64,000 nt of DNA, taken from contig JBGFRC010000001.1 in NCBI GenBank assembly GCA_041695325.1, positions 7,686 through 71,685 on the forward strand, in the 5' to 3' direction. The stretch comes from Pseudomonadota bacterium (lineage in GTDB: Bacteria > Pseudomonadota > Gammaproteobacteria > SURF-13). Positions 9,381-59,056 of the stretch are shown here, piece after piece; the stretch's first letter is position 1; every line of letters begins with the position of its first letter. The translations under genes and the position numbers were made by a program. The notes below the pieces were generated by a model that was given only the letters and a program-made list of their open reading frames with translations, was not told the DNA's origin and ran no database searches.

Positions 9381-10310
9381 TTAGATTGCGGCATCCGTAC
9401 AATAGTTCAATACTTTGGTCAAGACATTTGCGTCCAGGCCGTCAAACCACGTCACGCCCGGCTCCGCGCGCAGCCAGGTAAGCTGGCGCTTCGCCAGTTG
9501 GCGTGTAGCTATAATAGCGCGTTTTGCCATCTCCTCGCAATCAAACTCCCCTTGCAGATGCCGCCATACCTGGCGGTAGCCGACCGCGCGCAGGGCCGGC
9601 GTATCCAGGCTCAAATCCCTGCGCTGTTTAAGGTTTTTCACTTCTTCAATCAGACCGCGCCGCAGCATGTCATGAAAGCGCGCGGCGATGCGTTCGTGCA
9701 GTGCCGCGCGCCGGACGGGCGCAAGGGCGATTTTCTGAATCTGGTAAGGCAACGCGGCGCGCGAGGCCGCGCGGTGCAGTTCGCTCATCGGCGAGCCGCG
9801 CAGTTCGCAAACCTCCAGCGCGCGCTGGATGCGCTGCGCGTCGTTGGGATGGATGCGCGCGGCGGAGACGGGGTCCAGCCGAGCCAGGCGTGCATGCAGC
9901 GCCGCCCAGCCGTGTTGTCCGGCCTCGGCGGTCAGGCGCGCGCGCAGGACGGGATCGGCGCCTGGCAGGTCCGCGAGACCTTGCTCCAGCGCCCGGAAAT
10001 ACAAGAGGGTGCCGCCCACCAGCAGCGGAATACGCCCGCGCCGCGCGATCTGCTCCATCTCGCGCAGCGCATCCAGGCGGAACTGCGCCGCCGAATAAGC
10101 TTCGGCCGGATCGCGGATATCTATCAAGCGATGCGGGGCGCGCGCCAATGTTTCGGGCGGCGGCTTGGCGGTGCCGATGTCCATGCCGCGGTACACCATG
10201 CCGGAGTCCACGCTGATGATGTCGCACGGCAGCCGCTCGGCCAAACTCAACGCAAGCTCGGTCTTGCCGGAGGCGGTCGGCCCCATTAAAAAGATGGCGG
10301 GTGGCAACAT
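9381..10310 (-). CDS. miaA: tRNA dimethylallyltransferase
   Basis: P-loop [10 protein letters not shown]; start placed at internal Met [17 protein letters not shown] (complement of 10308-10310). The longer track ORF would overlap mutL by 76 nt. Confidence 0.9.
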
Positions 10311-10360: not shown

Positions 10361-12154
10361 TTACCGCCCCCTCATGAACAGCTTGTCCAGCGCCGTCATA
10401 TCGAGCTGCACCCAGGTAGGGCGGCCGTGGTTGCACTGGTTGCTGCGCGAGGTAGCTTCCATATCGCGCAGCAGTGCGTTCATCTCCGCAATGCTGAGCT
10501 TGCGTCGCGCGCGCACCGCGGTGTGACAGGCCATGCCCGCCAGGATTTCGTTCATCTGTTCACCCGGGCGCGCGCTGGTTCCGTACGCGGCAATGTCCGC
10601 CAGCGCGTCGCGCAGCAGCGCGGCGGCGTCCGCGTCGCCGAGCAGCGCCGGGACCTGGCGGATCAGGAGCGCCTCCGGCCCGGCTCGGCTGATTTCAAAA
10701 CCCAGTTTGTTTAACAGCGCGCCGTGCCGCTCCGCGAGCTCGGCCTCATGCTCGCTCACGTTCACGCTGACCGGCACCAGCAGCGGTTGCGCGCGCACGC
10801 CTTCGCCTTGCAGCGCCTGCTTCAGGCGTTCATACACCACGCGCTCGTGCGCGGCGTGCATGTCCACCAGCACCAGGCCGCTCTTGTTCTCGGCCAGGAT
10901 ATAGATGCCCTGTAATTGCGCCAGCGCATAACCCAGCGGCGGCATATCTTGCGGTGCGGCGGCTTCCCGTATCGGCTCCAACGACGGCATGCCGTGCAAA
11001 ATGTTGTAGGCGCTGATCTGCTCACGCACCTGTGATGCGTTGGGGTGCAGCGGCATGGCGGTTTGCTGCGCGTGTTGCACATGGAACGCGGCTGCCGGCG
11101 GCGCGGCGGAAACGGTCTGGCCCGCGCGCGTCCCGGCCAGTGCCTGCTGCACGGCGCGATACAGAAAATCGTGCGCCAGACGCGCGGTGCGAAAACGCAC
11201 TTCATGCTTGGCCGGATGAACGTTCACATCCACCTCTTCCGGCGGCAGGATAAAGTAGAGCACATAGGCCGGGTGGCGCCCCTGATACAGCACGCCCTGG
11301 TAAGCCTGGCGCAGCGCGTGGCTCACCAGCTTGTCGCGGATCAGGCGCCCGTTGAGATAAAAATACTGCATGTCAGCCTGGCTGCGCGAGAAGGTGGGCA
11401 GGCTGATCCAGCCTCTCACGCGCAACGGCCCGGCCCCGAATTCCATGCCGAGCGCCTGCGCCATGAAACTCTCTCCGCACAGCGCGGCCACGCGCCGCTC
11501 TATTCCTTCCTCGGCGCGCAACGTGAACACCGTGCGCTCGTGGTGGCGCAGCGTGAAGTCCGTATCGGCGCGCGACAAGGCCAGGCGCTTGACCGTCTCG
11601 TGCAGGTGCTCAAACTCGGTCTGCTCGCTCCTGAGAAACTTGCGCCGCGCGGGAATGTTATAAAACAGATCGCGCACCTCCACCGTGGTGCCGACGGGGT
11701 GCGGCGTAGGACGCGGCGCGCCGGTTTCGCCGCCGGCGATGGTCCAGCCGTTGGCGTCTTCCGCGCTGCGCGAGGCGAGTGTAAGACGTGACACGGAACA
11801 GATGCTGGGCAGCGCCTCGCCGCGGAAGCCGAGGCTCTGGACCCGTTCCAGGTCGCCCAAGGTTTGTATTTTGCTGGTGGCGTGACGGCTCAGGGCCAAG
11901 GCTAGATCGTTCCTGCGGATACCGCAGCCGTCGTCGCGCACCCGCATCAGGCGCATGCCGCCCTGCTCCACTTCGATTTCGATCCGGCGCGCGCCCGCGT
12001 CCAGGCTGTTCTCCAGCAACTCTTTCATAACCGAAGCCGGGCGCTCCACCACCTCACCGGCGGCGATCTGGCCTATGAGCACATCGGGCAGGCGCTGTAT
12101 GCGTGGAATTTCCGACAACGGTGTACCTCTTGGTAAGGCCGCTTTGACCCTCAC
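10361..12154 (-). CDS. mutL: DNA mismatch repair endonuclease MutL
   Basis: GHKL ATPase motif [27 protein letters not shown], 597 aa. Confidence 0.95.
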
Positions 12155-48426: not shown

Positions 48427-50724
48427 ATGCACACACCTGTCATGTCATCCCCGCCGCCGCTTGCACCCTCGCGTCAGTCCAGGCGCTGGCTGCTCGGCGG
48501 ACGCGTGCAAGGCGTGGGCTTCCGCCCTTTTGTGTACCGCCTTGCGCGGCATTATGACCTCTCCGGCTGGGTAAGAAATCTCTCCGGCCGGGTGGAGATT
48601 GTGGCGCAGGGCGCAAACGGGACACTGGAACAGTTCAGCCGCGCGCTGATGGGTGAAGCGCCGCCGCTCGCCAGAGTTGAAATTATCTCTTGTGAACCTC
48701 TTGCTCAGACGCAGGACTGCGTATCCTTCCACATCCTGCCCAGCCTGTCCGGCGCAACCGAGTCCATCCATCTGCCGCCGGATTACTTTCTGTGCGCGGA
48801 GTGCTGGAGCGAATTGCACGATCCAGCCAACCGACGTTACCGCTATCCCTTCATTAACTGTACGCAGTGCGGTCCGCGCTACACCGTGATCCGCGCGCTG
48901 CCCTACGATCGCGCCAACACCACGCTCGCAGGCTTTGAACTATGTGCAGAGTGCAGCAAAGAATACGGCAATCCACTCGACCGGCGTTTTCACGCCGAGC
49001 CGGTGGCCTGCCCCGCGTGCGGCCCGCAACTGTTCTTCCATGCGCCGGGGCGCACCTCCATTGACGACACAGCGGACGCCCTGAGCGCATGCGTGGCCGC
49101 ATTGCGCGAAGGGAAGATCGTGGCCGTGAAAGGCGTCGGCGGCTATCATCTTATGTGCGATGCGCGCAGCGACTCCGCCGTGCTGCGCCTGCGCAGCCGC
49201 AAGCCGCGGCCGCACAAACCTCTGGCGGTGATGTTCCCGCTGCAGGGCGAAGACGGATTGAACGGCGTGCGCGGGCACGCGCTTGTCGGCGCCGTTGAAA
49301 CACGCGCCTTGCTTGATCCGGCGTGCCCCATCGTGCTGGTAAAAAAAGGTTCACAGGCCGGATTGTCGCCATACATCGCACCGGGGCTGAATGAAATCGG
49401 CGCACTGCTGCCGTACAGTCCGTTGCATCATTTGTTACTGGAAGAGTTCGGCGCGCCGCTGGTCGCCACCTCCGCCAATATCAGCGGCGAACCGGTGCTC
49501 ACGGATAATGGCAAAGCGCAGGCGCGTCTCGCGCACGTGGCGGATACGTTCCTGCACCACAACCGTCCCATCGCCCGCCCCGCCGACGATGCCGTAGTGC
49601 GCGTCATCGCCGGCAAACCGCGTGTGCTGCGCCTTGGCAGAGGGCTGGCGCCGCTGGAACTCCCCTTGCCTTTTACCCTGCGCCGCCCTCTTCTCGCCTG
49701 CGGCGCGCATATCAAAAACACCACCGCGCTGGCGTGGAATAATCGCGTGGTGATCTCGCCCCACATCGGCGACCTCGGTACCGTACGCAGCATGGAAATA
49801 TATGAACAAACCGCCGCCGATCTGCAAGCGCTTTACGGCGTGCGCGCGGAAATACTGATCTGCGACGCGCACCCCGGTTACGCCAACACGCGCTGGGCGA
49901 GACGCACAGGCTTGCCCGTCATCCCGGTCTGGCATCATCATGCGCACGCCTCCGTGCTGGCGGGTGAATTCCCCGAGGTCAAAAACTGGTTGGTGTTTAG
50001 CTGGGATGGCGTAGGCTTGGGTGAAGACGGGACCCTATGGGGCGGCGAGGCCCTGCTGGGGGCGCCTGGAAACTGGCGGCGCGCAGCGACCCTGCGTCCG
50101 TTTCATTTGCCGGGCGGAGATAAGGCCGCGCGCGGACTGTGGCGCAGCGCGCTCGCATTGTGTTGGGAGGCGGGTTATGCCTGGCGCGAATGTCCGAAAG
50201 ACATCGCACTGTTACAACACGCCTGGCAGCGGCGGCTCAACAGCCCGCAAACCAGCGCGGCGGGGCGATTGTTTGACGGAGCGGCGGCCCTGCTCGGCTT
50301 GGCCGTCGAGACCAGCTTTGAAGGACAAGGACCGATGTATCTGGAGGCCATCAGCGGTGAAATCGCGCAACCCGTCACGCTGCCGTTGCAGCGCAACGCG
50401 CGCGGGATTTGGCAAACCGAGTGGGCGCCGCTCATTCCCTATCTGCTCAATGAGGATTTAACTATTGGGCAACGCGGCGCGGGTTTTCACGCCAGTCTCG
50501 CCCAGACCCTGTTACAGCAGGCACGCGTGTTGCGCGATGAGCACGGCGTAACTCACGTGGGCCTGAGCGGCGGCGTGTTTCAAAACTGCGTGCTTACGGA
50601 GCAGGCGATGGCGCTGCTGAACAATGACGGCTTTGAGGTCCGCCTTACCGAACGCGTGCCGTGCAATGACGGCGGCATCAGCTACGGCCAAATCATCGAA
50701 GCACGCGCCAGGCTGAACAACTGA
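48427..50724 (+). CDS. hypF: carbamoyltransferase HypF
   Basis: 765 aa with acylphosphatase domain, two Zn-finger CxxC pairs, YrdC and Kae1-like domains. Confidence 0.95.
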   Translation: MHTPVMSSPPPLAPSRQSRRWLLGGRVQGVGFRPFVYRLARHYDLSGWVRNLSGRVEIVAQGANGTLEQFSRALMGEAPPLARVEIISCEPLAQTQDCVSFHILPSLSGATESIHLPPDYFLCAECWSELHDPANRRYRYPFINCTQCGPRYTVIRALPYDRANTTLAGFELCAECSKEYGNPLDRRFHAEPVACPACGPQLFFHAPGRTSIDDTADALSACVAALREGKIVAVKGVGGYHLMCDARSDSAVLRLRSRKPRPHKPLAVMFPLQGEDGLNGVRGHALVGAVETRALLDPACPIVLVKKGSQAGLSPYIAPGLNEIGALLPYSPLHHLLLEEFGAPLVATSANISGEPVLTDNGKAQARLAHVADTFLHHNRPIARPADDAVVRVIAGKPRVLRLGRGLAPLELPLPFTLRRPLLACGAHIKNTTALAWNNRVVISPHIGDLGTVRSMEIYEQTAADLQALYGVRAEILICDAHPGYANTRWARRTGLPVIPVWHHHAHASVLAGEFPEVKNWLVFSWDGVGLGEDGTLWGGEALLGAPGNWRRAATLRPFHLPGGDKAARGLWRSALALCWEAGYAWRECPKDIALLQHAWQRRLNSPQTSAAGRLFDGAAALLGLAVETSFEGQGPMYLEAISGEIAQPVTLPLQRNARGIWQTEWAPLIPYLLNEDLTIGQRGAGFHASLAQTLLQQARVLRDEHGVTHVGLSGGVFQNCVLTEQAMALLNNDGFEVRLTERVPCNDGGISYGQIIEARARLNN

Positions 50725-51728
50725 TGCAAGACACCCACATCAGCCTCGCGCACGGCAACGGCGGGCGCTGCATGCGCGAGCTCATCGAACGCCTGTTCGC
50801 GCATCACCTGGCCAATCCGCTGCTCGACATTGACGCCGATGCCGTGCCGCTGCCGATGCCGGAGGGCGAGATCATGCTCACCACGGACGGTTTCACCGTG
50901 CAGCCGCTGGAGTTTCCCGGCGGCGACATCGGGGCGCTCGCCGTACACGGCACGGTGAACGACCTCGCGGTGGCTGGCGCGACGCCGCTCTATCTCACCC
51001 TCAACGCGTTGATTGAGGAAGGCCTGGAAGTCGCCCAGCTCCGGCGCATCATCGCCAGCCTCGCGCGCAGCGCGCGGGAAACCGGCGTGCGCGTGGTGGC
51101 GGGCGACACCAAGGTCGTGCCGCGTGGCGCGGGCGGCGGTCTGTACCTTTCCGCCAGCGGCGTGGGTGCGCGCGCGCCTGGCGTACAGTTGGGCATAACG
51201 CAGATCAGGGAGGGTGATGCGATACTGGTCAGCGGGCCGGTGGGCGATCACGCCGTGGCCGTGCTGCTCGCACGCGAACAATTCGGCCTGCGCGGAAACA
51301 TATACTCCGACATGGCCTGCGTGCTGCCGCTCACCCGCGCCCTGCTCGCCTTTGCCGGTCTGCGCTTCATGCGCGATCCCACGCGCGGCGGACTCGCCAC
51401 CGTGCTGCACGAAATTTGCCGTGCAACCAATCTGGGCGTGCATCTTGAAGAAGCCGCCATACCCATCAGGCCCGCCGTGCGCTCGGTATGTGACATGCTC
51501 GGCTATGACCCGCTCTATCTCGCCTGCGAAGGCCGCGTAGTCGCGGTGATTGCACCCGATCAGGCGCAAGCGGCGCTCGCAGTCTGGCGCACCGCGCCGC
51601 TGGGCGACCAGGCCGCCATCATCGGACACATGACAGGCAACCCGGCGCGTGTAATCCTGGAAACCTACATCGGCGGCAGACGCATACTGGAAGAACTGGA
51701 AGACGACCCCCTGCCGCGTATCTGCTGA
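50724..51728 (+). CDS. hypE: hydrogenase expression/formation protein HypE
   Basis: AIR-synthase-like fold ending ...DDPLPRIC with the conserved C-terminal Cys; 334 aa. Confidence 0.95.
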   Translation: MQDTHISLAHGNGGRCMRELIERLFAHHLANPLLDIDADAVPLPMPEGEIMLTTDGFTVQPLEFPGGDIGALAVHGTVNDLAVAGATPLYLTLNALIEEGLEVAQLRRIIASLARSARETGVRVVAGDTKVVPRGAGGGLYLSASGVGARAPGVQLGITQIREGDAILVSGPVGDHAVAVLLAREQFGLRGNIYSDMACVLPLTRALLAFAGLRFMRDPTRGGLATVLHEICRATNLGVHLEEAAIPIRPAVRSVCDMLGYDPLYLACEGRVVAVIAPDQAQAALAVWRTAPLGDQAAIIGHMTGNPARVILETYIGGRRILEELEDDPLPRIC

Positions 51729-51897
51729 CAACACGCCTGGACCCCGGTCATCGAATCCAGGGTCGAACGGGCATCCCTTGTGACGGGACTTTCCTATTTG
51801 TCGAAAAAAAGGTATTATTTCGACACATTATTCCGATCTGTCGATGCGATCAACAGGTTCTGCGGACGTGTCGAACCACGAGATACTTGATAAACAA

Positions 51898-53037
51898 ATG
51901 AAAAATTTCGATCCCGCCAAGCCCTATAACGCACTGCCCCTGCTGCCTCCACAGGCAGATATCGAAAGCCGGACGGTACTCAAGGCTTGCATCGGCGCCC
52001 GCGCCGCGCTGGGGGAGCTCAAGCAGGCCGCAGGGTTGATTCCCAACCCGGCCATCCTGATCAACACCATTCCCCTGCTCGAAGCGCGCGCCAGTTCCGA
52101 AATCGAGAATATCGTCACCACTGCCGATCGTCTGTTCCGATATGCCCAGAATGATGCGGCAGGGCGGGCCGACCCGGCTACGAAGGAAGCGCTGCGTTAC
52201 CGTACCGCGCTGTATCAGGGGTTCCAATCGCTGAAAAAGCGGCCACTCACCACCGCCACCGCCGTGGACATCTGTCGCACCATCAAGGGTGTGGCCTTGG
52301 ATGTCCGGCGCATACCAGGCACGACACTCGCCAACGACGCTACCGGCAAGGTGATCTATACGCCACCGCAGGGCGAGGCCTTGCTGCGCAAGCTGCTCGC
52401 CAATTGGGAGCGTTTCCTGCACGAGGCCGACGAGTTCGACCCCCTCATTCGCATGGCCGTGGCGCATTGCCAGTTCGAGGCTATACACCCGTTCAGCGAC
52501 GGTAACGGCCGTACCGGTCGCATCCTCAACCTGCTGTTCCTGGTAGAACAAGGGCTGATCGATCTGCCTGTGCTCTACCTCAGCCGTCATATTCTCCGCC
52601 GCAAGGCTGATTACTACCGCCTTCTGCAGGCGGTCACCACCGGGGGACAATGGGAAAAATGGCTGCTTTACATGCTGAGCGGCGTCGAGGAGACGGCCCG
52701 CTGGACCACCACCAAGATTCAAGCCATTCGCGAACTACTTGATGCCACGGCGGATTGGGTTGGCGCAGAACTGCCCGCCATCTGCAGCCGCGAGCTCATT
52801 GAGCTGGTATTCGTTCAGCCATACTGCCGCATCGCAAATGTAGTGGAGGCCGGAATAGCCCGACGCCAGACCGCCTCAGTATATCTAAAGGAACTATGCG
52901 CTGTCGGTATCCTGAAAGAAATGAGCGCCGGACGCGAGAAGCTTTTTATCAACCCACGACTGATGACACTACTCACAGCAGAACACCACGCTGTGTCCAT
53001 ATCTCTGGGGAAGAAAAGATCAAACCATGCCAACTGA
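51898..53037 (+). CDS. Fic-family protein with C-terminal winged helix
   Basis: Fic motif HPFSDGNGRTGR; N-terminus MKNFDPAKPYNALPLLPP typical of this Fic class. Alternative upstream start at 51844. Confidence 0.85.
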   Translation: MKNFDPAKPYNALPLLPPQADIESRTVLKACIGARAALGELKQAAGLIPNPAILINTIPLLEARASSEIENIVTTADRLFRYAQNDAAGRADPATKEALRYRTALYQGFQSLKKRPLTTATAVDICRTIKGVALDVRRIPGTTLANDATGKVIYTPPQGEALLRKLLANWERFLHEADEFDPLIRMAVAHCQFEAIHPFSDGNGRTGRILNLLFLVEQGLIDLPVLYLSRHILRRKADYYRLLQAVTTGGQWEKWLLYMLSGVEETARWTTTKIQAIRELLDATADWVGAELPAICSRELIELVFVQPYCRIANVVEAGIARRQTASVYLKELCAVGILKEMSAGREKLFINPRLMTLLTAEHHAVSISLGKKRSNHAN

Positions 53038-55390
53038 AGCCGACACCTGCCGCAAATTCGTTGTCCCGAAACTCCAGGCCGCCGGGTGGGACAACGAGCC
53101 GCATTCGATCGCGGAGCAGCGCACCATCACCGACGGGCGCATCGTGCCGGTCGGCAAGGGTTTTATCCGCAAGCTGCCCAAACGCGTAGACTACCTGTTG
53201 CGCTATACACGCGATTTCCCGCTTGCCGTTGTCGAAGCCAAGGCCAGCTATAAATCCGCTGCGGACGGGATGCAGCAGGCCAAGGATTATGCCGAAATTC
53301 TGGGTCTCAAGTTCGCCTACGCCACGAACGGCCGCGACATCATCGAATTCGATCACTTCACGGGACGCGAAACGTCGTTGGCGGACTACCCGCCGCCGGC
53401 GGAGTTGTGGCGGCGCTACCGTACCGGCAGCAGGATCAAGGACGACAAAACCGCTGAACGCCTGCTTGCGCCCTTCAACCACGAGGTCGGCAAGGGTGAG
53501 CGTTACTACCAGCAAATCGCCGTCAACCGCACCGTCGAGGCAATTCTCAAAGGGCAGCGGCGTCTGCTCATCACCATGGCCACGGGCACGGGTAAAACCG
53601 TGGTGGCTTTTCAAATTTGCTGGAAGCTATGGAATGCCCGCTGGAACCGAACTGGCGATTATCGCCGGCCACGCATCCTGTATCTCGCCGACCGCAATAT
53701 TCTCATTGACCAGCCGAAGGACGGCATCTTCGCCGCCTTCGGCGACGCGCGCTACAAGATCGAGTCCGGCGAGGTGGTGAAAAGCCGCGAGATGTACTTC
53801 GCCATCTATCAGGCGCTCGCGGAAGATGAGAGGCGCGCCGGTCTGTTCAAGGAATACTCGCCCGATTACTTCGACCTCGTTATCGTGGATGAATGCCACC
53901 GCGGCAGTGCCCGCGACGACAGCGCTTGGCGCAGCATCCTCGACTACTTCCAACCCGCCGTGCAACTCGGCATGACCGCCACGCCTCTGCGCGAAGAAAG
54001 CCGCGATACCTATCTCTATTTCGGCAACCCGATATACGAGTATAGCCTGCGCCAAGGCATTGACGACGGCTTCCTGGCCCCTTACCGCGTACATCGGGTC
54101 ATCACCGAATGGGACGCCGCCGGCTGGCGCCCGAACAAGGTCGATCTTGATCGTTACGGACGCCCGATTCCCGATGACGAATACCAGACCAAGGACTTCG
54201 AGCGGGCGGTGGCATTGCGGGCTCGTACCGAAACCATCGCACGCCATCTCACCGAGTTTCTAAAGAAAACCGACCGTTTCGCCAAGACCATCGTTTTCTG
54301 CGTGGACCAGGAACACGCCAGCGAAATGCGAAAGGCTTTGACCAATCTGAACAGCGATCTCGCCGCCAGGCACCCGGATTACGTCTGCCGCGTCACCGCC
54401 GACGAGGGCGATATCGGACGCGGCCATCTCGGCCGCTTTCAGGACGTGGATACCCAGACGCCGGCAATCCTCACGACCTCGCAACTGCTCACGACCGGCG
54501 TGGATGCACCGACCTGCAAGAACGTCGTGCTCGCCCGGGTGGTGGGCTCGATGGCCGAATTCAAGCAGATCATCGGCCGGGGCACGCGCGTGCGTGACGA
54601 TTACAACAAGCTCTGGTTCAACATTCTCGATTACACCGGCTCGGCGACTCGCCTGTTTGCCGACCCGGCGTTCGACGGCGATCCGGTGAAGCTGACGGAG
54701 GAGGAGTTGCTGGCGGGCGGCGAGAGCAGGATCCTCACCAAAACCGGCATCGAAACAGAAGCTGGAGTGGCGGAACCCGAGGGGCCTTATGTGGTGGAGC
54801 CCCCGGAAGAAGAGCGCCGGAAATATTATTTTGACGGCGGTTCGGTCGAGATTGCGGCCCATCTCGTCTATGAGCTGGACCCGGACGGCAAGCAACTGCG
54901 CGTCGTGCGCTATACCGACTATGCGGCCGAGAAGGTGCGCACGCTTTGCCCCACGGCCCGCGAGTTGCGTGAAAAATGGGCCGATCCGGCACAACGCTCC
55001 GAGATCATTCAGGCCCTCGAAGAGCGGGGCGTCAGCTTCATGGAGCTGGCGGAACAGGCGAAGATGCCCGAGGCCGACCCCTTCGACCTGCTCTGTCATC
55101 TCGCCTTCAACGCGCCGCTGCGCACGCGCCGCGAGCGCGCCCAGCGCCTGAAGAGCGAGCGCAAGGACTTCTTCGAGCAATACGGACCCGAAGCCAGCCA
55201 GATTCTGGAAGAGCTGCTGGAAAAATATGCCGAGCACGGCAATGCCCAGTTCCTGCTGCCGGACGTACTGCACGTCCCGCCCATCTCGTCGCATGGCACG
55301 GTGCGCGAAATCAGCGCCGCTTTCGGCGGTCCCGAGAAACTTCGGCAGGCCGTGAACGACCTGCAAAACCTGCTGTACGCCGCATCGTGA
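53027..55390 (+). CDS. hsdR: type I restriction enzyme R subunit
   Basis: N-terminal restriction domain; helicase motifs MATGTGKT and DECHRG; 787 aa. Confidence 0.9.
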   Translation: MPTEADTCRKFVVPKLQAAGWDNEPHSIAEQRTITDGRIVPVGKGFIRKLPKRVDYLLRYTRDFPLAVVEAKASYKSAADGMQQAKDYAEILGLKFAYATNGRDIIEFDHFTGRETSLADYPPPAELWRRYRTGSRIKDDKTAERLLAPFNHEVGKGERYYQQIAVNRTVEAILKGQRRLLITMATGTGKTVVAFQICWKLWNARWNRTGDYRRPRILYLADRNILIDQPKDGIFAAFGDARYKIESGEVVKSREMYFAIYQALAEDERRAGLFKEYSPDYFDLVIVDECHRGSARDDSAWRSILDYFQPAVQLGMTATPLREESRDTYLYFGNPIYEYSLRQGIDDGFLAPYRVHRVITEWDAAGWRPNKVDLDRYGRPIPDDEYQTKDFERAVALRARTETIARHLTEFLKKTDRFAKTIVFCVDQEHASEMRKALTNLNSDLAARHPDYVCRVTADEGDIGRGHLGRFQDVDTQTPAILTTSQLLTTGVDAPTCKNVVLARVVGSMAEFKQIIGRGTRVRDDYNKLWFNILDYTGSATRLFADPAFDGDPVKLTEEELLAGGESRILTKTGIETEAGVAEPEGPYVVEPPEEERRKYYFDGGSVEIAAHLVYELDPDGKQLRVVRYTDYAAEKVRTLCPTARELREKWADPAQRSEIIQALEERGVSFMELAEQAKMPEADPFDLLCHLAFNAPLRTRRERAQRLKSERKDFFEQYGPEASQILEELLEKYAEHGNAQFLLPDVLHVPPISSHGTVREISAAFGGPEKLRQAVNDLQNLLYAAS

Positions 55391-55412
55391 AACGAGACAG
55401 CAAAGACACCCC

Positions 55413-55507
55413 TGGATTGCTTCGCGGCCTTCGGCCGTTCGCAATGACGGCGACGGCGGGTGCAACCTATCGTCATTGCGAGCGCCCACAGGGCGCGAAG
55501 CAATCCA
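55413..55507. repeat. nested palindromic ~95-bp element, left flank of the GIY-YIG gene
   Basis: Outer arms tggattgcttcgcg / cgcgaagcaatcca and inner arms cgcaatgacg / cgtcattgcg. A second copy lies at 55839-55942. Confidence 0.7.
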
Positions 55508-55548
55508 GTAGTCAATGAGTATTGGCAACACGAAATCCTCCAGAGCCC

Positions 55549-55836
55549 ATGAAACAACCCTGCGTCTACATCATGGCAAACAAACGAAACGGCACGTTAT
55601 ATACGGGCGTTACGTCAAACCTTGTACAACGCGTCCACCAACACAAGGAAGGGGTGGTGGAGGGGTTTACCAGCAAGTACGACTGCAAAATGCTTGTCTG
55701 GTACGAGCCGCACGAAACGATGGAAAGCGCCATCCAGCGGGAGAAACAGATCAAAGGGGGAAGTCGTGCAAAAAAGCTGGCGCGGATTGAGGCCGCAAAT
55801 CCAGCATGGCGGGATTTGTATGGCGACATCGTATAG
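55549..55836 (+). CDS. GIY-YIG nuclease family protein (UPF0213/COG2827 type)
   Basis: MKQPCVYIMANKRNGTLYTGVTSNLVQRVHQHKEG...EREKQIKG..., the GIY-YIG motif; ~95 aa. Confidence 0.85.
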   Translation: MKQPCVYIMANKRNGTLYTGVTSNLVQRVHQHKEGVVEGFTSKYDCKMLVWYEPHETMESAIQREKQIKGGSRAKKLARIEAANPAWRDLYGDIV

Positions 55837-55838
55837 CC

Positions 55839-55942
55839 TGGATTGCTTCGCGCCCTTCGGTCGCTCGCAATGACGAGGCCGCATCAGCGGTGGCGTCATT
55901 GCGAGGAGGGCGGAGCCCGACGAAGCAATCCAGAATCAGCCC
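55839..55942. repeat. nested palindromic ~100-bp element, right flank of the GIY-YIG gene
   Basis: Same arms as 55413-55507 (tggattgcttcgcg...cgcaatgacg...cgtcattgcg...cgaagcaatcca). Begins 2 nt after the GIY-YIG stop. Confidence 0.7.
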
Positions 55943-55995
55943 GGAAGTCCCCGAGAAACCACCACACGACGACATAAAACGAGAGAGCACGCGTA

Positions 55996-57546
55996 ATGCC
56001 ACGTAACAGGAAGACAAAGGCGGACAAGCCGCTCACCACCGCCCAATCGCTCGGCAGCCTGCTCAAGTCCGCGCGCGACATTATGCGCAAGGACAAGGGC
56101 CTGAACGGCGATCTCGACCGCCTGCCGATGCTCACCTGGATCATGTTCCTCAAGTTTCTGGACGACTTGGAGCTTCAGCGGGAGGAAGAGGCGAAGCTAG
56201 CGGGTACCCGGTTCAAGGCCGCTGTCGAAAAACCGTATCGCTGGCGCGACTGGGGCGCGAAGCCGGACGGCATCACCGGCGACGAGCTGCTCGCCTTCAT
56301 CAATCAGGATAAGAGTCGCCGCCCTGACGGCAGCAGGGGACCGGGTCTGTTCGCCTATCTGCGCGGTCTGACCAGCTCCAACGGCGACAACCGCCGCGAC
56401 GTGATCGCGACCGTATTCAAAGGCGTGGATAACCGCATGAAGAGCGGTTACCTGCTGCGCGACGTTATCAACAAGGTCAACGGCATCCATTTCACGGCCA
56501 GCGACGAACTGCACACGCTCGGCTCGCTCTACGAATCCATGCTGCGCGAGATGCGCGACGCCGCGGGCGACTCCGGCGAGTTCTATACACCGCGTCCGGT
56601 GGTGCGCTTCATGGTCGAGGCGGTCAATCCTCGGCTCGACGAAACCGTGCTCGACCCGGCTTGCGGCACCGGTGGCTTTCTGGTCGAGGCGTTCAATCAC
56701 CTGAGCCAACAGGTGGAAACTGTCGCCGGCCGCAAACTGCTTCAGGGCAGGTCTCTTTATGGTTTTGAGCCCAAGCCGCTGCCGTATCTGCTCGCACAGA
56801 TGAACCTGTTATTGCACGGCCTCGATGCCCCGCAGATTGACCCCGGCAACGCGCTGCGCTTCAAGCTCACCGAGATCGGCGAGAAGAACCGCGTGTACGT
56901 GATCCTTACCAACCCGCCCTTCGGCGGAGAGGAGGAAAAGGGTATTCAGGACAACTTCCCCGAGAATCGGCAGACCGCCGAAACTGCACTGCTGTTTCTT
57001 CAGCTCATTATGCGCCGGCTGCATCGTGCGCCGGGGAAATCCGGCTATGCCCGTGCGGCGGTGGTCGTACCCAACGGCACGCTTTTCGGCGACGGTGTCT
57101 GCGCCCGCATCAAGGAAGAACTGCTCAAGGATTTCAACCTGCACACCATCGTGCGCCTGCCGAACGGCGTATTCGCGCCGTACACGAGCATCCCGACCAA
57201 CATCCTGTTCTTCGACCGTTCCGGCCCGACGAAAGACGTGTGGTACTACGAGCAACCCTTGCCCGAGGGTCGTAAGAACTACACCAAAACCCAGGCGATT
57301 CAGTTTGAGGAATTCAAACCTTGCCTTGAATGGTGGAAGAAGCGCGAGGAAAACGATCGCGCCTGGAAGGTGAGCGCCGAAGAATTGCTCGCTAACAACT
57401 GCAACCTCGACCGCAAGAACCCACGCGGCAAGGTGGACTTCGAGCACCTGCCACCGGAACAGCTCGCCGATGACATCCTGAAGAAGGAACAGCGTATCGC
57501 CGAGATCATGACTGAAATCAAGACTATGTTGGCGCAGAAGGTGTGA
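55996..57546 (+). CDS. hsdM: type I restriction-modification N6-adenine DNA methyltransferase subunit M
   Basis: NPPFGG catalytic motif and HsdM N-terminal domain; 516 aa. Confidence 0.95.
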   Translation: MPRNRKTKADKPLTTAQSLGSLLKSARDIMRKDKGLNGDLDRLPMLTWIMFLKFLDDLELQREEEAKLAGTRFKAAVEKPYRWRDWGAKPDGITGDELLAFINQDKSRRPDGSRGPGLFAYLRGLTSSNGDNRRDVIATVFKGVDNRMKSGYLLRDVINKVNGIHFTASDELHTLGSLYESMLREMRDAAGDSGEFYTPRPVVRFMVEAVNPRLDETVLDPACGTGGFLVEAFNHLSQQVETVAGRKLLQGRSLYGFEPKPLPYLLAQMNLLLHGLDAPQIDPGNALRFKLTEIGEKNRVYVILTNPPFGGEEEKGIQDNFPENRQTAETALLFLQLIMRRLHRAPGKSGYARAAVVVPNGTLFGDGVCARIKEELLKDFNLHTIVRLPNGVFAPYTSIPTNILFFDRSGPTKDVWYYEQPLPEGRKNYTKTQAIQFEEFKPCLEWWKKREENDRAWKVSAEELLANNCNLDRKNPRGKVDFEHLPPEQLADDILKKEQRIAEIMTEIKTMLAQKV

Positions 57547-57548
57547 GA

Positions 57549-58721
57549 ATGGCGTGGCCGAATGTGACGCTAAGAGAAGTTTTGACGCCGATCGAACGTC
57601 CTGAGTCACCGCTGCCAGGCACGGCCTACCGCCAGCTCGGAGTAAAGCTGTGGGGCGAAGGCGCTTATGAGCGCGAGACCATTGACGGCGCTGCCACGAA
57701 ATACTCGACGCTTTCCCGCATAGAAGCAGATGACGTTGTGGTCAACAAGATTTGGGCACGCAGCGGCAGCGTCGCGGTAGTGCAGTTTCCGCTTGCTGGA
57801 TGCTACGTCAGCGGAGAATTTCCGACGTTCACTGTGAATCCCGCGAAGTTGTCGCCGCGCTGGATGCATTGGCTGACCAAGACGCCGAACTTCTGGTTGC
57901 AGTGCGACGAGAAGTCACGGGGCACAAGTGGAAAGAACCGCATCAAGCCTGAGCAGTTCCTGAGTGTCGAAATCCCCCTGCCGCCGCTGGCCGAACAGCG
58001 GCGCATCGTGGCGCGCATCGAAGCCCTGTCAGCCAAAATCGCCGAAGTCCGCTCCTTTCGCCAAGAGAGTGTGGAGGAAGGAGAGCGTTTGCTCATTTGT
58101 ATGGCCCATAGACGTGACCTAGACGACAACGCAAAGCAGCGCTCTGGATGGCGTCGCCTTAAACTTCGTGAGTGCATTCAGCTCGTTGACGACTCATGCA
58201 GTGTAGAGGCCGATAAGAGCTATCCAAATCTTGGTATCTACAGTTTTGGCCGAGGGCTTTTTCACAAACCCCCGATCGAGGGCATTTCAACCGCGGCCAA
58301 AACATTGCGGCGCGTGCATCGGGGGCAGTTTATCTACAGTCGCCTGTTCGCATTTGAGGGTGCCTACGGTATGGTGTCCGATGAATTCGATAGGCATTTT
58401 GTCTCCGGTGAGTATCCAACGTTCGAATGCAAGCGGGACTTGATTCGTGCGGAATTTCTGGCCGCATATTTCAGGTCAGCAGAGGTGTGGAGGAGCGTGG
58501 CTATAGGTAGTAAGGGCTTGGGCGATCGTCGCCAGCGCGTACAACCGGACCAAGTGCTCGGTTCAGATATCTGGCTGCCGCCAATTGCTTTACAAAATCA
58601 GCTTGCTGAGTCCCAGGCCAAGGTCGATGCGCTCAAACACCTACAGTCCGAATCCGCCGCCGAACTCGATGCCATGCTGCCCGCCATCCTCGACTGCGCG
58701 CTTAAGGGAGAACTGTCATGA
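57549..58721 (+). CDS. hsdS: type I restriction-modification specificity subunit S
   Basis: Two target-recognition domains separated by conserved helical spacers; start overlaps the hsdM stop. Confidence 0.85.
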   Translation: MAWPNVTLREVLTPIERPESPLPGTAYRQLGVKLWGEGAYERETIDGAATKYSTLSRIEADDVVVNKIWARSGSVAVVQFPLAGCYVSGEFPTFTVNPAKLSPRWMHWLTKTPNFWLQCDEKSRGTSGKNRIKPEQFLSVEIPLPPLAEQRRIVARIEALSAKIAEVRSFRQESVEEGERLLICMAHRRDLDDNAKQRSGWRRLKLRECIQLVDDSCSVEADKSYPNLGIYSFGRGLFHKPPIEGISTAAKTLRRVHRGQFIYSRLFAFEGAYGMVSDEFDRHFVSGEYPTFECKRDLIRAEFLAAYFRSAEVWRSVAIGSKGLGDRRQRVQPDQVLGSDIWLPPIALQNQLAESQAKVDALKHLQSESAAELDAMLPAILDCALKGELS

Positions 58722-58879
58722 GCAATATGGATACATTGCGGCTTTACGCCGAAGGCAAGGTCTTTGTGGAAGGGCGATTCTACCTTCGGGAAACGATTAG
58801 GCTTCTTGACAGGGGATGGCAATACCGTTGGCATCCAGATAGCGGAGACCGCCGACGTTCACAGCTTTTCGCAGACCGC

Positions 58880-59056
58880 GTACGACAAAGGACCGCAAGC
58901 GGCGCTCGCTGTCTGGCGCGCCCTGCCGCTGGGCCAACAAGCCGCCATCATCGGGCGCGTGACGGCACCCCGCCGCGCGCAACCCTGGAAACCCCCATCG
59001 GCGGCAGACGCACCCTGGAAGAACTGGAAGATGACCCCCTGCCGCGCATTTGCTAA
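58880..59056 (+). pseudogene. degenerate, frameshifted duplicate of the hypE 3' end
   Basis: About 85% nucleotide identity to 51565-51731. It encodes ...QAALAVWRALPLGQQAAIIG... then, after a 1-nt frameshift, ...IGGRRTLEELEDDPLPRIC-stop, mirroring the HypE C-terminus. Confidence 0.7.

Follow-up and report, generated by a model that had tools for sequence, protein, structure and literature searches.

What is a small nuclease gene, bracketed by two large hairpins, doing inside a type I restriction-modification (R-M) operon? The question is raised by a 64,000-nucleotide stretch of contig JBGFRC010000001.1 (positions 7,686 to 71,685 of the forward strand; GenBank assembly GCA_041695325.1) from a Pseudomonadota bacterium of the gammaproteobacterial lineage SURF-13. 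This whole stretch is called the window below, and all coordinates are counted within it unless another locus is named. An initial annotation, made without database searches, had described a selfish-looking GIY-YIG mini-element inserted between hsdR and hsdM and flanked by identical nested palindromes. We report here that the gene probably encodes a nuclease of the Ssn family and that the flanking hairpins are probably its cognate recognition motifs (SRMs), carried together on a cassette of about 600 bp inserted between hsdR and hsdM. This assignment is based on homology, catalytic residues, predicted fold and motif match, and we put its probability at roughly 85%. The Ssn system was published in 2025, and the locus therefore adds a member with a motif variant, not a new class.

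Ssn nucleases were described only in that year, and Neisseria is the only genus in which their biological role is known. SsnA of Neisseria meningitidis (NMV_0044/NMB0047) is a 94-aa GIY-YIG protein that binds its motif, NTS (CGTCATTCCCGCGMAVGCGGGAATCYRG), only as single-stranded DNA (ssDNA) (Chenal et al. 2025, Nat Commun, PMC11893778). It cuts a few nucleotides upstream of NTS, does not bind RNA, and is inactive on RNA, on the reverse strand and on double-stranded DNA (dsDNA), for which activity was undetected. Homologues number in the thousands (CDD cd10448, GIY-YIG_unchar_3); at least one SRM lies near 71% of the ssn genes, and SRMs lie on both sides in 42%. Four homologues each cut their own motif, and cleavage falls in the variable flank of the motif. 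The authors favour domestication of the system, and that the repeat-gene-repeat block is or has been mobile is their speculation (PMC11893778). The initial annotation did not recognise this published system, in which the repeats are the ssDNA recognition sites of the nuclease and not generic transposon ends.

Results

A probable Ssn-family nuclease gene

The gene, here called ssn (55549-55836, plus strand), encodes a single-domain protein of 95 aa, as the initial annotation had stated; its Pfam GIY-YIG match (PF01541, E=1.6e-17) spans residues 4-76. For comparison with SsnA, the orthologue of Neisseria gonorrhoeae was used as a proxy for the N. meningitidis protein. Two 2.17-Mb gonococcal chromosomes sit as plasmids in PLSDB (NZ_CP119140.1 and NZ_CP119142.1; L084), and the presence of a gonococcal chromosome in a plasmid collection made this direct comparison possible. 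The gonococcal orthologue is 94 aa long (1998-2279 of L084), with 16 NTS copies in the 4.3 kb around its gene. The window protein aligned to it without gaps at 63% identity (E=2e-46 pairwise, E=2e-34 by tblastn). By the published criterion, a family member matches the N. meningitidis protein at E<1e-10 (PMC11893778); compared through the gonococcal proxy, the window protein lies well within this limit.

Residues Y7, Y18 and E65 aligned to Y6, Y17 and E64 of SsnA, mutation of which abolishes cleavage by the N. meningitidis enzyme (PMC11893778). Together with R28, H32 and N84, these three residues were invariant in alignments of 15 and of 34 homologues. The AlphaFold2 model of the protein (pLDDT 94.2) showed one compact GIY-YIG domain, and its best fold matches in the PDB were UPF0213 protein BH0048, Slx1, the N-terminal domain of UvrC and I-TevI. 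The UPF0213/YhbQ proteins (PDB 1zg2, BH0048; 1ywl, EF2693), which gave the best structural matches (E=1.8e-3, TM 0.57), are similar in size and likewise consist of a single GIY-YIG domain. However, their identity to the window protein is only 21-25%, no hairpin association is known for UPF0213, and the Ssn authors assigned UPF0213 to a different CDD subfamily (PMC11893778). A sequence search of the PDB gave no match at E<=0.01 and no Ssn structure, and none of the NCBIfam and PADLOC models matched the protein. An exact-protein look-up returned the same locus in three other assemblies and thus no independent context.

The dN/dS ratio among the three cassette copies of ssn described below was 0.06-0.09 (dS 0.4-0.7), indicating that the gene is under strong purifying selection and that the protein is maintained by it.

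Paired hairpin units on both sides of the gene

Two long inverted repeats (55412-55508 and 55838-55933) bracket ssn. The initial annotation was right that two elements flank the gene, although its bounds (55413-55507 and 55839-55942) are replaced by these; its description of the repeats as identical was too strong, since the two share 76 of 97 positions (78%). Their outer arms are 92-100% alike and their inner parts diverge. The nested hairpin described earlier holds as a long inverted repeat, but each repeat is in fact a head-to-head pair of separately foldable units of 38-40 nt, consisting of a minus-strand unit, a spacer of 21 or 18 nt and a plus-strand unit.

Pattern matching, repeat search and folding defined four units. 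In the left repeat, unit L1 (55412-55449, minus strand, reading CGTCATTGCGAACGGCCGAAGGCCGCGAAGCAATCCAG on that strand) is separated by 21 nt (55450-55470) from unit L2 (55471-55508, plus strand, CGTCATTGCGAGCGCCCACAGGGCGCGAAGCAATCCAG), which folded as DNA at -10.7 kcal/mol (z -3.5). In the right repeat, unit R1 (55838-55875, minus strand, reading CGTCATTGCGAGCGACCGAAGGGCGCGAAGCAATCCAG on that strand) is followed after 18 nt (55876-55893) by unit R2 (55894-55933, plus strand, CGTCATTGCGAGGAGGGCGGAGCCCGACGAAGCAATCCAG), which is nearly identical in L004, a related locus described below. The two spacers lie between the CGTC heads of each pair and form the loops of the left and right long hairpins; by analogy with SsnA, they are where nick sites would be predicted. 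The units adjoining the gene, L2 and R1, are the most similar pair (92% complementary). A core 12-mer, CGTCATTGCGAG, has four copies in the window, every one of them at this locus, against 0.77 expected.

On its own strand, each unit reads 5' to 3' CGTC-ATTGC-GA(G/A), a GC-rich inner stem with a 3-nt loop, and (C)GAA-GCAAT-CCAG. Folded singly as DNA, it has an unpaired 4-nt CGTC head, a 5-bp ATTGC/GCAAT outer stem and an unpaired 4-nt CCAG tail; its interior consists of a 2x3-nt internal loop (GA/GAA), an inner stem of 4-6 bp and a 3-nt loop. All four units therefore carry a CGTCATT head and an AATCCAG tail, two units on each side of the gene. Head and tail are the same in NTS, and the order of unpaired 4-nt head, stem and unpaired tail is also common to the window units and the 28-nt NTS.

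Association of the motif with ssn

We examined the 80 closest genome loci with an ssn homologue (L004-L083; Ssn 62-88% identical), which come from alpha-, beta- and gammaproteobacteria, Chloroflexota, Nitrospinota and others. CGTCAT...AATCC units lay within 300 nt on both sides of the gene at 53 of the 80 loci; counting every locus with a unit on one side or both, the number was 72. Their density near ssn was 4.64 per kb, compared with 0.152 per kb in the remaining 1.09 Mb of these loci. This gene-motif association matches the published figures of 42% and 71%.

The published SRM search string, HGTCWYN(0-2)YYVSBRHN(0-5)WNVSBRGN(0-2)RNCYNB, is a heuristic and not a definition, and locates a motif near only 71% of homologues (PMC11893778); we implemented it from the methods text, and the implementation of its authors may differ. 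Near the gene it matched at 23 of the 80 loci, while 49 had only units of the kind found in the window, here called the ATTGC class, and eight had neither. ATTGC-class units fail the string at its YY positions. They usually occur in a 30-nt and a 36-nt form (CGTCATTGCGAGCGCAGCGAAGCAATCCAG and CGTCATTGCGAGGAGCGAAGCGACGAAGCAATCCAG), and the window units are versions with a longer inner stem. Throughout the class, variation in sequence and length is seen in the inner stem, with hardly any in the outer stem or the GA/GAA internal loop. Beyond the unit, conservation reaches only one base 5' of the head (Y) and two bases 3' of the tail (AG/T), a limit that agrees with the published cleavage in the variable flank. 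The same boundary led us to discard a conserved insertion target beside the units.

Inverted pairs of ATTGC-class units were mostly tail-to-tail (56 versus 10 head-to-head among the genome loci; 27 versus 1 among 80 metagenome loci, L096-L175), so that the head-to-head pairs of the window and of its two related cassettes, L004 and L092, are the minority form. The metagenome loci came from a scan for the exact pattern of the window-type unit, which gave at least 120 stretches and, among the matches listed, these 80 loci. Four had an ssn homologue within 400 nt, whereas 37 were clearly without ssn within 700 nt; the other 39 lay too near a contig end. From these 37 versus 4 among the loci listed, the window-type unit is dispersed mostly without ssn, as REP (repetitive extragenic palindromic) sequences are relative to their transposases. 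The search for further copies with and without the nuclease gene, which the initial annotation had proposed, thus found both kinds, with at least 37 metagenome contigs clearly lacking ssn.

Several observations were made on the spacing and number of units near other ssn genes. In many homologues (Betaproteobacteria, Chloroflexota and others; L011, L012, L019, L028, L051, L052, L056, L058, L061, L063, L066, L067 and L077), the ssn start codon lies 13-16 nt downstream of the end of a plus-oriented unit. In the window, 40 nt separate unit L2 from the ssn ATG, and an in-frame TTG (55522) lies 13 nt after the unit. A motif tail at the position of the ribosome-binding site could reflect autoregulation or a fixed 5' untranslated region. 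Regular arrays of CGTCATTGC-containing units, the period of which ranges between 44 nt and about 217 nt, were seen near the homologues in L072 (900-10700), L077 (11881-12110), L006, L025 and L048, in clusters much larger than that of the window. The Chloroflexota chromosome of L077 also carries tandem ssn paralogues (10001-10285 and 10395-10676; 66% and 61% identical to window Ssn), both preceded by the CGTCATTGC motif.

Four points weigh against assigning the window hairpins to the SRMs. The published string has no match in the 64-kb window, the units being a longer variant. Those 64 kb contain only four units and give no hint of the copy number known from Neisseria genomes, which runs to hundreds. 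In double-stranded or transcribed form, a pair can also make a single 97-nt hairpin, and this would compete with the hairpins of its separate units. Finally, three of the four units folded alone were not significantly more stable than shuffled sequences.

The cassette is an insertion between hsdR and hsdM

The genes on either side of the cassette are those of a type IB (EcoAI-family) R-M system. On the left, the insertion is bordered by the intact restriction subunit gene hsdR (53027-55390, plus strand; 787 aa). Its product scored 1037.8 bits against the EcoAI/FtnUII equivalog model NF046051 of NCBIfam (cut-off 550) and has the Pfam domains ResIII and EcoEI_R_C. The right border is hsdM (55996-57546, plus strand; 516 aa, intact; Pfam N6_Mtase, E=6e-63, and HsdM_N), followed by the specificity gene hsdS (57543-58721, plus strand; Pfam Methylase_S). 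The gene order hsdR-hsdM-hsdS and the NF046051 match are those of EcoAI-family operons; unlike its relatives in that family, the window has 605 bp between the hsdR stop and the hsdM start.

Junctions were surveyed in contigs encoding the closest HsdM relatives (85-93% identical). In six of them (L085, L086, L087, L088, L090 and L091), hsdR and hsdM are 10-14 bp apart with no GIY-YIG gene between them. These empty junctions have a conserved AAGGTAAGC spacer, include ..GCATCCTAGAAGGTAAGCCATGCC.., and read stop-(A)AGGTAAGC(A/C)-ATG. Because this sequence is common to the short junctions, the short junction looks ancestral. Window HsdR and HsdM are full-length with their termini kept: HsdR has the same length and C-terminus (..LLYAAS*) as in the insert-less relatives, and HsdM is 93% identical to P0122, which is encoded at a locus with an empty junction. 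The initial annotation's reading of an insertion was borne out by these six systems, but its estimate of a spacer of about 70 bp without the unit was not: removal of the 522-bp unit leaves 83 bp, compared with 10-14 bp in the related empty junctions. Since relatives have only those 10-14 bp, the insert is effectively the whole 605-bp intergenic region. It includes a left flank of 21 nt (55391-55411), absent from empty junctions and partly conserved in L004, and a right flank of 62 nt up to the hsdM ATG (55934-55995), homologous to the L004 flank and also absent from empty junctions. The right flank has taken the place of the ancestral short spacer, in which an AAGG ribosome-binding site was located.

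Two further filled junctions were found. In L004, from an Acidiferrobacterales metagenome-assembled genome, Ssn is 88% identical and the insert is 90% identical at the nucleotide level over 650 nt, including the 21-nt and 62-nt flanks; one unit there has a TGTC head. In L092 (4177-4900 of that locus), Ssn is 92% identical, with one head-to-head pair upstream of ssn and two downstream, so that the number of hairpin pairs differs between this copy and that of the window. The cassette occupies the same place in the same orientation in all three. The three operons do not share their neighbours: L004 has a kinase-HDOD-GAF gene, L092 a thioredoxin/HEAT gene, and the window a SoFic gene upstream. A fourth kind of junction was seen in L089 (400-500 of that locus; HsdM 88% identical), where 135 bp without ssn contain two canonical SRMs, CGTCATTCCGGCGGAAGCCGGAATCCAG and CGTCACGCCAGTGGAAACTGGCATCCAG, inverted and tail-to-tail. 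These belong to a different class from those of the window, indicating that the same junction was hit independently.

Outside this group, the next closest Ssn (P0003, 80% identical) is encoded among metabolic genes. Type I genes stand beside ssn only at L004 among the 80 homologue loci, and 78 of the 80 have no homologue of the type I R-M genes of the window. We therefore rejected a conserved partnership of ssn with R-M genes. The Ssn block is an insertion and not a type I R-M subunit, and its position in an R-M operon is a trait of one lineage (the window, L004 and L092), not of the Ssn family. The arrangement that the initial annotation had named as a refutation of insertion, hsdR-GIY-YIG-hsdM kept in distant type I systems, was thus not found; its suggestion of a nuclease hitch-hiking with R-M systems applies within this lineage but not family-wide.

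One entry or several

The cassette could have reached these operons by transposition, by homing-like copying or by allelic recombination between R-M operons, all of which are possible. The filled alleles do not group together. At the nucleotide level, L004 hsdR is 93.1% identical to that of the empty L090, compared with 81-82% to those of the window and L092. Window hsdM is closest to that of the empty L085 (87.5% nucleotide, 93.4% amino acid identity), and L004 hsdM is closest to that of L092 (91.1%). Such scatter could mean that the site was entered more than once. Because the R-M genes are clearly mosaic, however, allelic recombination can move the cassette or its flanks; moreover, the homologous extra flanks of the three filled alleles are compatible with a single origin.

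A free-standing GIY-YIG homing endonuclease of the phage Seg or I-TevI type, cleaving dsDNA at empty hsdR-hsdM junctions, would account for presence/absence polymorphism at a site between conserved genes, and the window protein does have a GIY-YIG domain, with I-TevI among its fold matches. Those I-TevI matches are weak, however (E ~0.8-2). Unlike I-TevI and the Seg enzymes, the protein is a single domain of only 95 aa, with neither a linker nor a separate DNA-binding domain, and it is 63% identical to the SsnA proxy, dsDNA being a substrate on which SsnA activity was undetected. Its homologues are found in unrelated contexts, always in company with the hairpin motif. Co-conversion also left no sign: in the 130 codons on either side, the filled alleles were no more alike than in the rest of the genes, and this signature of homing was rejected. 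We consider homing highly improbable.

It is possible, although well short of probable, that the SRM-ssn-SRM block is an active autonomous mobile element, comparable to an insertion sequence (IS) or a homing element, which invaded the hsdR-hsdM spacer more than once, with Ssn nicks at the hairpins driving the copying of the cassette and of solo SRMs to new sites. The repeat-gene-repeat architecture resembles that of IS elements and RAYT loci, the latter coding for REP-associated tyrosine transposases, as the Ssn authors also noted (PMC11893778). Presence and absence at one site, the scatter of filled among empty alleles in hsdR/hsdM identity, the two SRMs of another class without a gene at the same junction in L089, the existence of dispersed solo units, and Ssn proteins 75-80% identical across alpha-, beta- and gammaproteobacteria all point in the same direction. 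Against this, no strand-transfer chemistry is known for a 95-aa GIY-YIG hydrolase, which also lacks a separate DNA-binding domain, and co-conversion is not seen in the 130 codons flanking each side. The visibly mosaic R-M alleles mean that allelic recombination alone can explain the distribution, and the filled alleles are only three, in one orientation, with homologous extra flanks that fit a single origin. There is also no convincing target-site duplication. The sequence AAACGAGA(C/G)AGCA occurs in the window at 55391-55403, just after the hsdR stop, and at 55975-55987, 20 nt before the hsdM ATG; the 8-nt AAACGAGA is degenerate in L004 and absent in L092, and we did not count it as evidence.

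The surrounding operon and its expression

The hsdR gene is directly preceded by a gene for a SoFic-type Fic protein (51844-53037, plus strand; 397 aa; PADLOC 399 bits, E=5.8e-120), the stop of which overlaps the hsdR start (53027). The Fic and R-M genes form a block of lower GC content (~55-62%, roughly 51.7-59.3 kb) adjoining hydrogenase-maturation genes of 63-72% GC (hypF, 48427-50724; hypE, 50724-51728), and this block looks like a defence island. Within it, GC content is ~52% over ssn, compared with ~62% in the flanks, a dip in keeping with the insertion of the cassette. After hsdS comes a 112-aa open reading frame (ORF; 58718-59056, plus strand) with a 4-nt overlap at the hsdS stop. Neither Pfam nor PADLOC gave a match for it, and related operons have differing genes at this position, namely HTH/Peptidase_M78, HipA_2 or unannotated ORFs. 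The overlapping ORFs that the initial annotation ascribed to the repeats on both strands are present in the window but carry no information.

The defence neighbours raise the question of whether Ssn has been domesticated to serve the host, restricting the ssDNA that enters by transformation or conjugation and cannot be cut by type I enzymes, with the operon position providing co-expression. SoFic (399 bits in PADLOC) and the R-M genes beside it, the operon orientation of the cassette in all three filled alleles and the strong purifying selection on ssn would agree with such a role. We nevertheless regard it as doubtful: Ssn cuts only DNA with its own motif, that is, self-like DNA; no PADLOC model matches it; 78 of 80 homologue loci are without a homologue of these type I genes; and the closest R-M relatives function without ssn. 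The word selfish in the initial annotation is likewise a supposition, given the low dN/dS of ssn and the preference of the Ssn authors for domestication (PMC11893778).

Folded as RNA, the two long repeats reached -67.8 and -67.0 kcal/mol (z -8.1 and -7.7), and none of 200 shuffled sequences was as stable. Hairpins of this stability, lying directly after the hsdR stop and before hsdM where the ancestral coupled junction and its AAGG site were lost, might act mainly as RNA, in the manner of REP sequences, which are known to act in 3' untranslated regions. They would then be stabilisers or attenuators uncoupling hsdR from hsdM and hsdS, and the nuclease gene would be incidental. This is unlikely. 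In the region 55300-56100 we found neither a sigma-70 promoter consensus nor an intrinsic-terminator consensus on the plus strand, where a U-tract terminator was likewise not found. The only terminator-like site in that scan (n=1) was on the minus strand inside ssn and was not above shuffled sequences. No Rfam family reached its threshold: searched by E-value, the region matched only mir-606 and mir-512 at 30 and 24 bits (gathering scores 80 and 94), which we dismissed as chance matches of a long hairpin, and the whole window gave no match in gathering mode. A tRNA/tmRNA scan also found none. In addition, SsnA does not bind RNA (PMC11893778), and the association of motif and gene across 80 unrelated contexts points to a relation with the protein at the DNA level. 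Because the plus strand lacks promoter and terminator consensus sequences, read-through transcription across the cassette is the simplest expectation.

Discussion

The cassette agrees with the described Ssn systems in encoding a GIY-YIG protein of one domain and about 94 aa, which has 63% identity to the gonococcal orthologue and keeps the catalytic Tyr, Tyr and Glu, in having oriented hairpin repeats, each with a CGTCATT head and an AATCCAG tail, to either side of the gene, and in the solo motif copies elsewhere. It differs from them in several respects. Its units, 38-40 nt long with a bipartite stem, are unlike the 28-nt simple hairpin of the Neisseria NTS, are missed by the published string and stand in head-to-head pairs making 97-nt hairpins. 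They number four in 64 kb, and a type I R-M operon surrounds the cassette.

The hairpins also resemble a second published group. CGTC-tagged REPs have a CGTC, or alternatively TGTC or CCTC, head, a stem beginning AT and a CCA tail, often occur as dimers and include the Neisseria dRS3 repeat as CGTC-1 (Di Nocera et al. 2013, BMC Genomics, PMC3733652). All four window units show this arrangement of an unpaired 5' CGTC tag, a stem starting A-T, T-A and an unpaired CCA tail, and in both groups inverted dimers are frequent and the distribution is mainly proteobacterial. The stem of the CGTC-tagged REPs is 8-9 bp with a 4-5-nt loop (PMC3733652), whereas that of the window units is interrupted and longer and lies outside this definition. 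CGTC-tagged REPs reach hundreds of copies in a genome, and no enzyme gene was found associated with them; in the words of the catalogue they "apparently lack a dedicated transposase" (PMC3733652). The window units flank a nuclease gene. Four of them were counted in the 64-kb window, and units of the same type occur without ssn in at least 37 metagenome contigs. The 2025 Ssn paper (PMC11893778) does not cite the 2013 catalogue (PMC3733652), and the name Nocera does not occur in its text. The two papers treat one repeat superfamily.

A single-copy enzyme gene flanked by its own dispersed hairpin repeats, as monomers and inverted dimers, is also the plan of the REPtron or REPIN-RAYT systems (PMC2817692, PMC3116915), which further resemble Ssn in the recognition of hairpins in ssDNA and in possible domestication. 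The window enzyme, however, is a GIY-YIG hydrolase with no known covalent-intermediate chemistry and not an HUH/Y1 transposase, and the tag of its repeats is CGTC instead of GTAG. That the SRM-ssn-SRM block is truly mobile, with Ssn as the mobilising enzyme so long missing from the CGTC-tagged REP superfamily, is a still more tentative proposal than repeated invasion of this one spacer. If it were true, the hsdR-hsdM spacer would be a natural series of filled, empty and solo-motif junctions catching the element in the act, and Ssn and its motifs would be a second, mechanistically distinct counterpart of REPIN-RAYT in which a hydrolytic GIY-YIG enzyme replaces the HUH transposase.

On our assignment of the cassette to the Ssn family, a working model can be drawn by analogy with N. 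meningitidis SsnA. Ssn would bind each unit as a hairpin in DNA made single-stranded by replication, transformation or conjugation, would recognise the CGTC head, the stem and the C that follows it, and would nick about 3 nt 5' of the CGTC head on each strand (PMC11893778). The head-to-head layout would place the nick sites of both strands in the 18-21-nt spacers, that is, in the loops of the long hairpins. Such nicking may serve the spread of the motif, the control of incoming ssDNA, or both. In the R-M operon, the cassette replaces the translationally coupled junction of 10-14 bp, AAGG ribosome-binding site included, and separates hsdR from hsdM by two very stable hairpins and one additional gene. 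Through the removal of the coupled junction, the insertion may alter the ratio of restriction to modification subunit expression.

For the family, the locus supplies a natural insertion series within one type I R-M family, comprising six empty junctions, three filled ones and one with motifs only, which makes mobility versus recombination directly testable. It also brings out a large ATTGC motif class, CGTC-ATTGC-GA..GAA-GCAAT-CCAG, missed by the published search string. Because that class is the sole one at 49 of 80 loci, the published gene-motif association figures may be underestimates. Each motif variant is a candidate new pair of enzyme and site for ssDNA tools, and the locus connects the Ssn nucleases to the "orphan" CGTC-tagged REPs of 2013.

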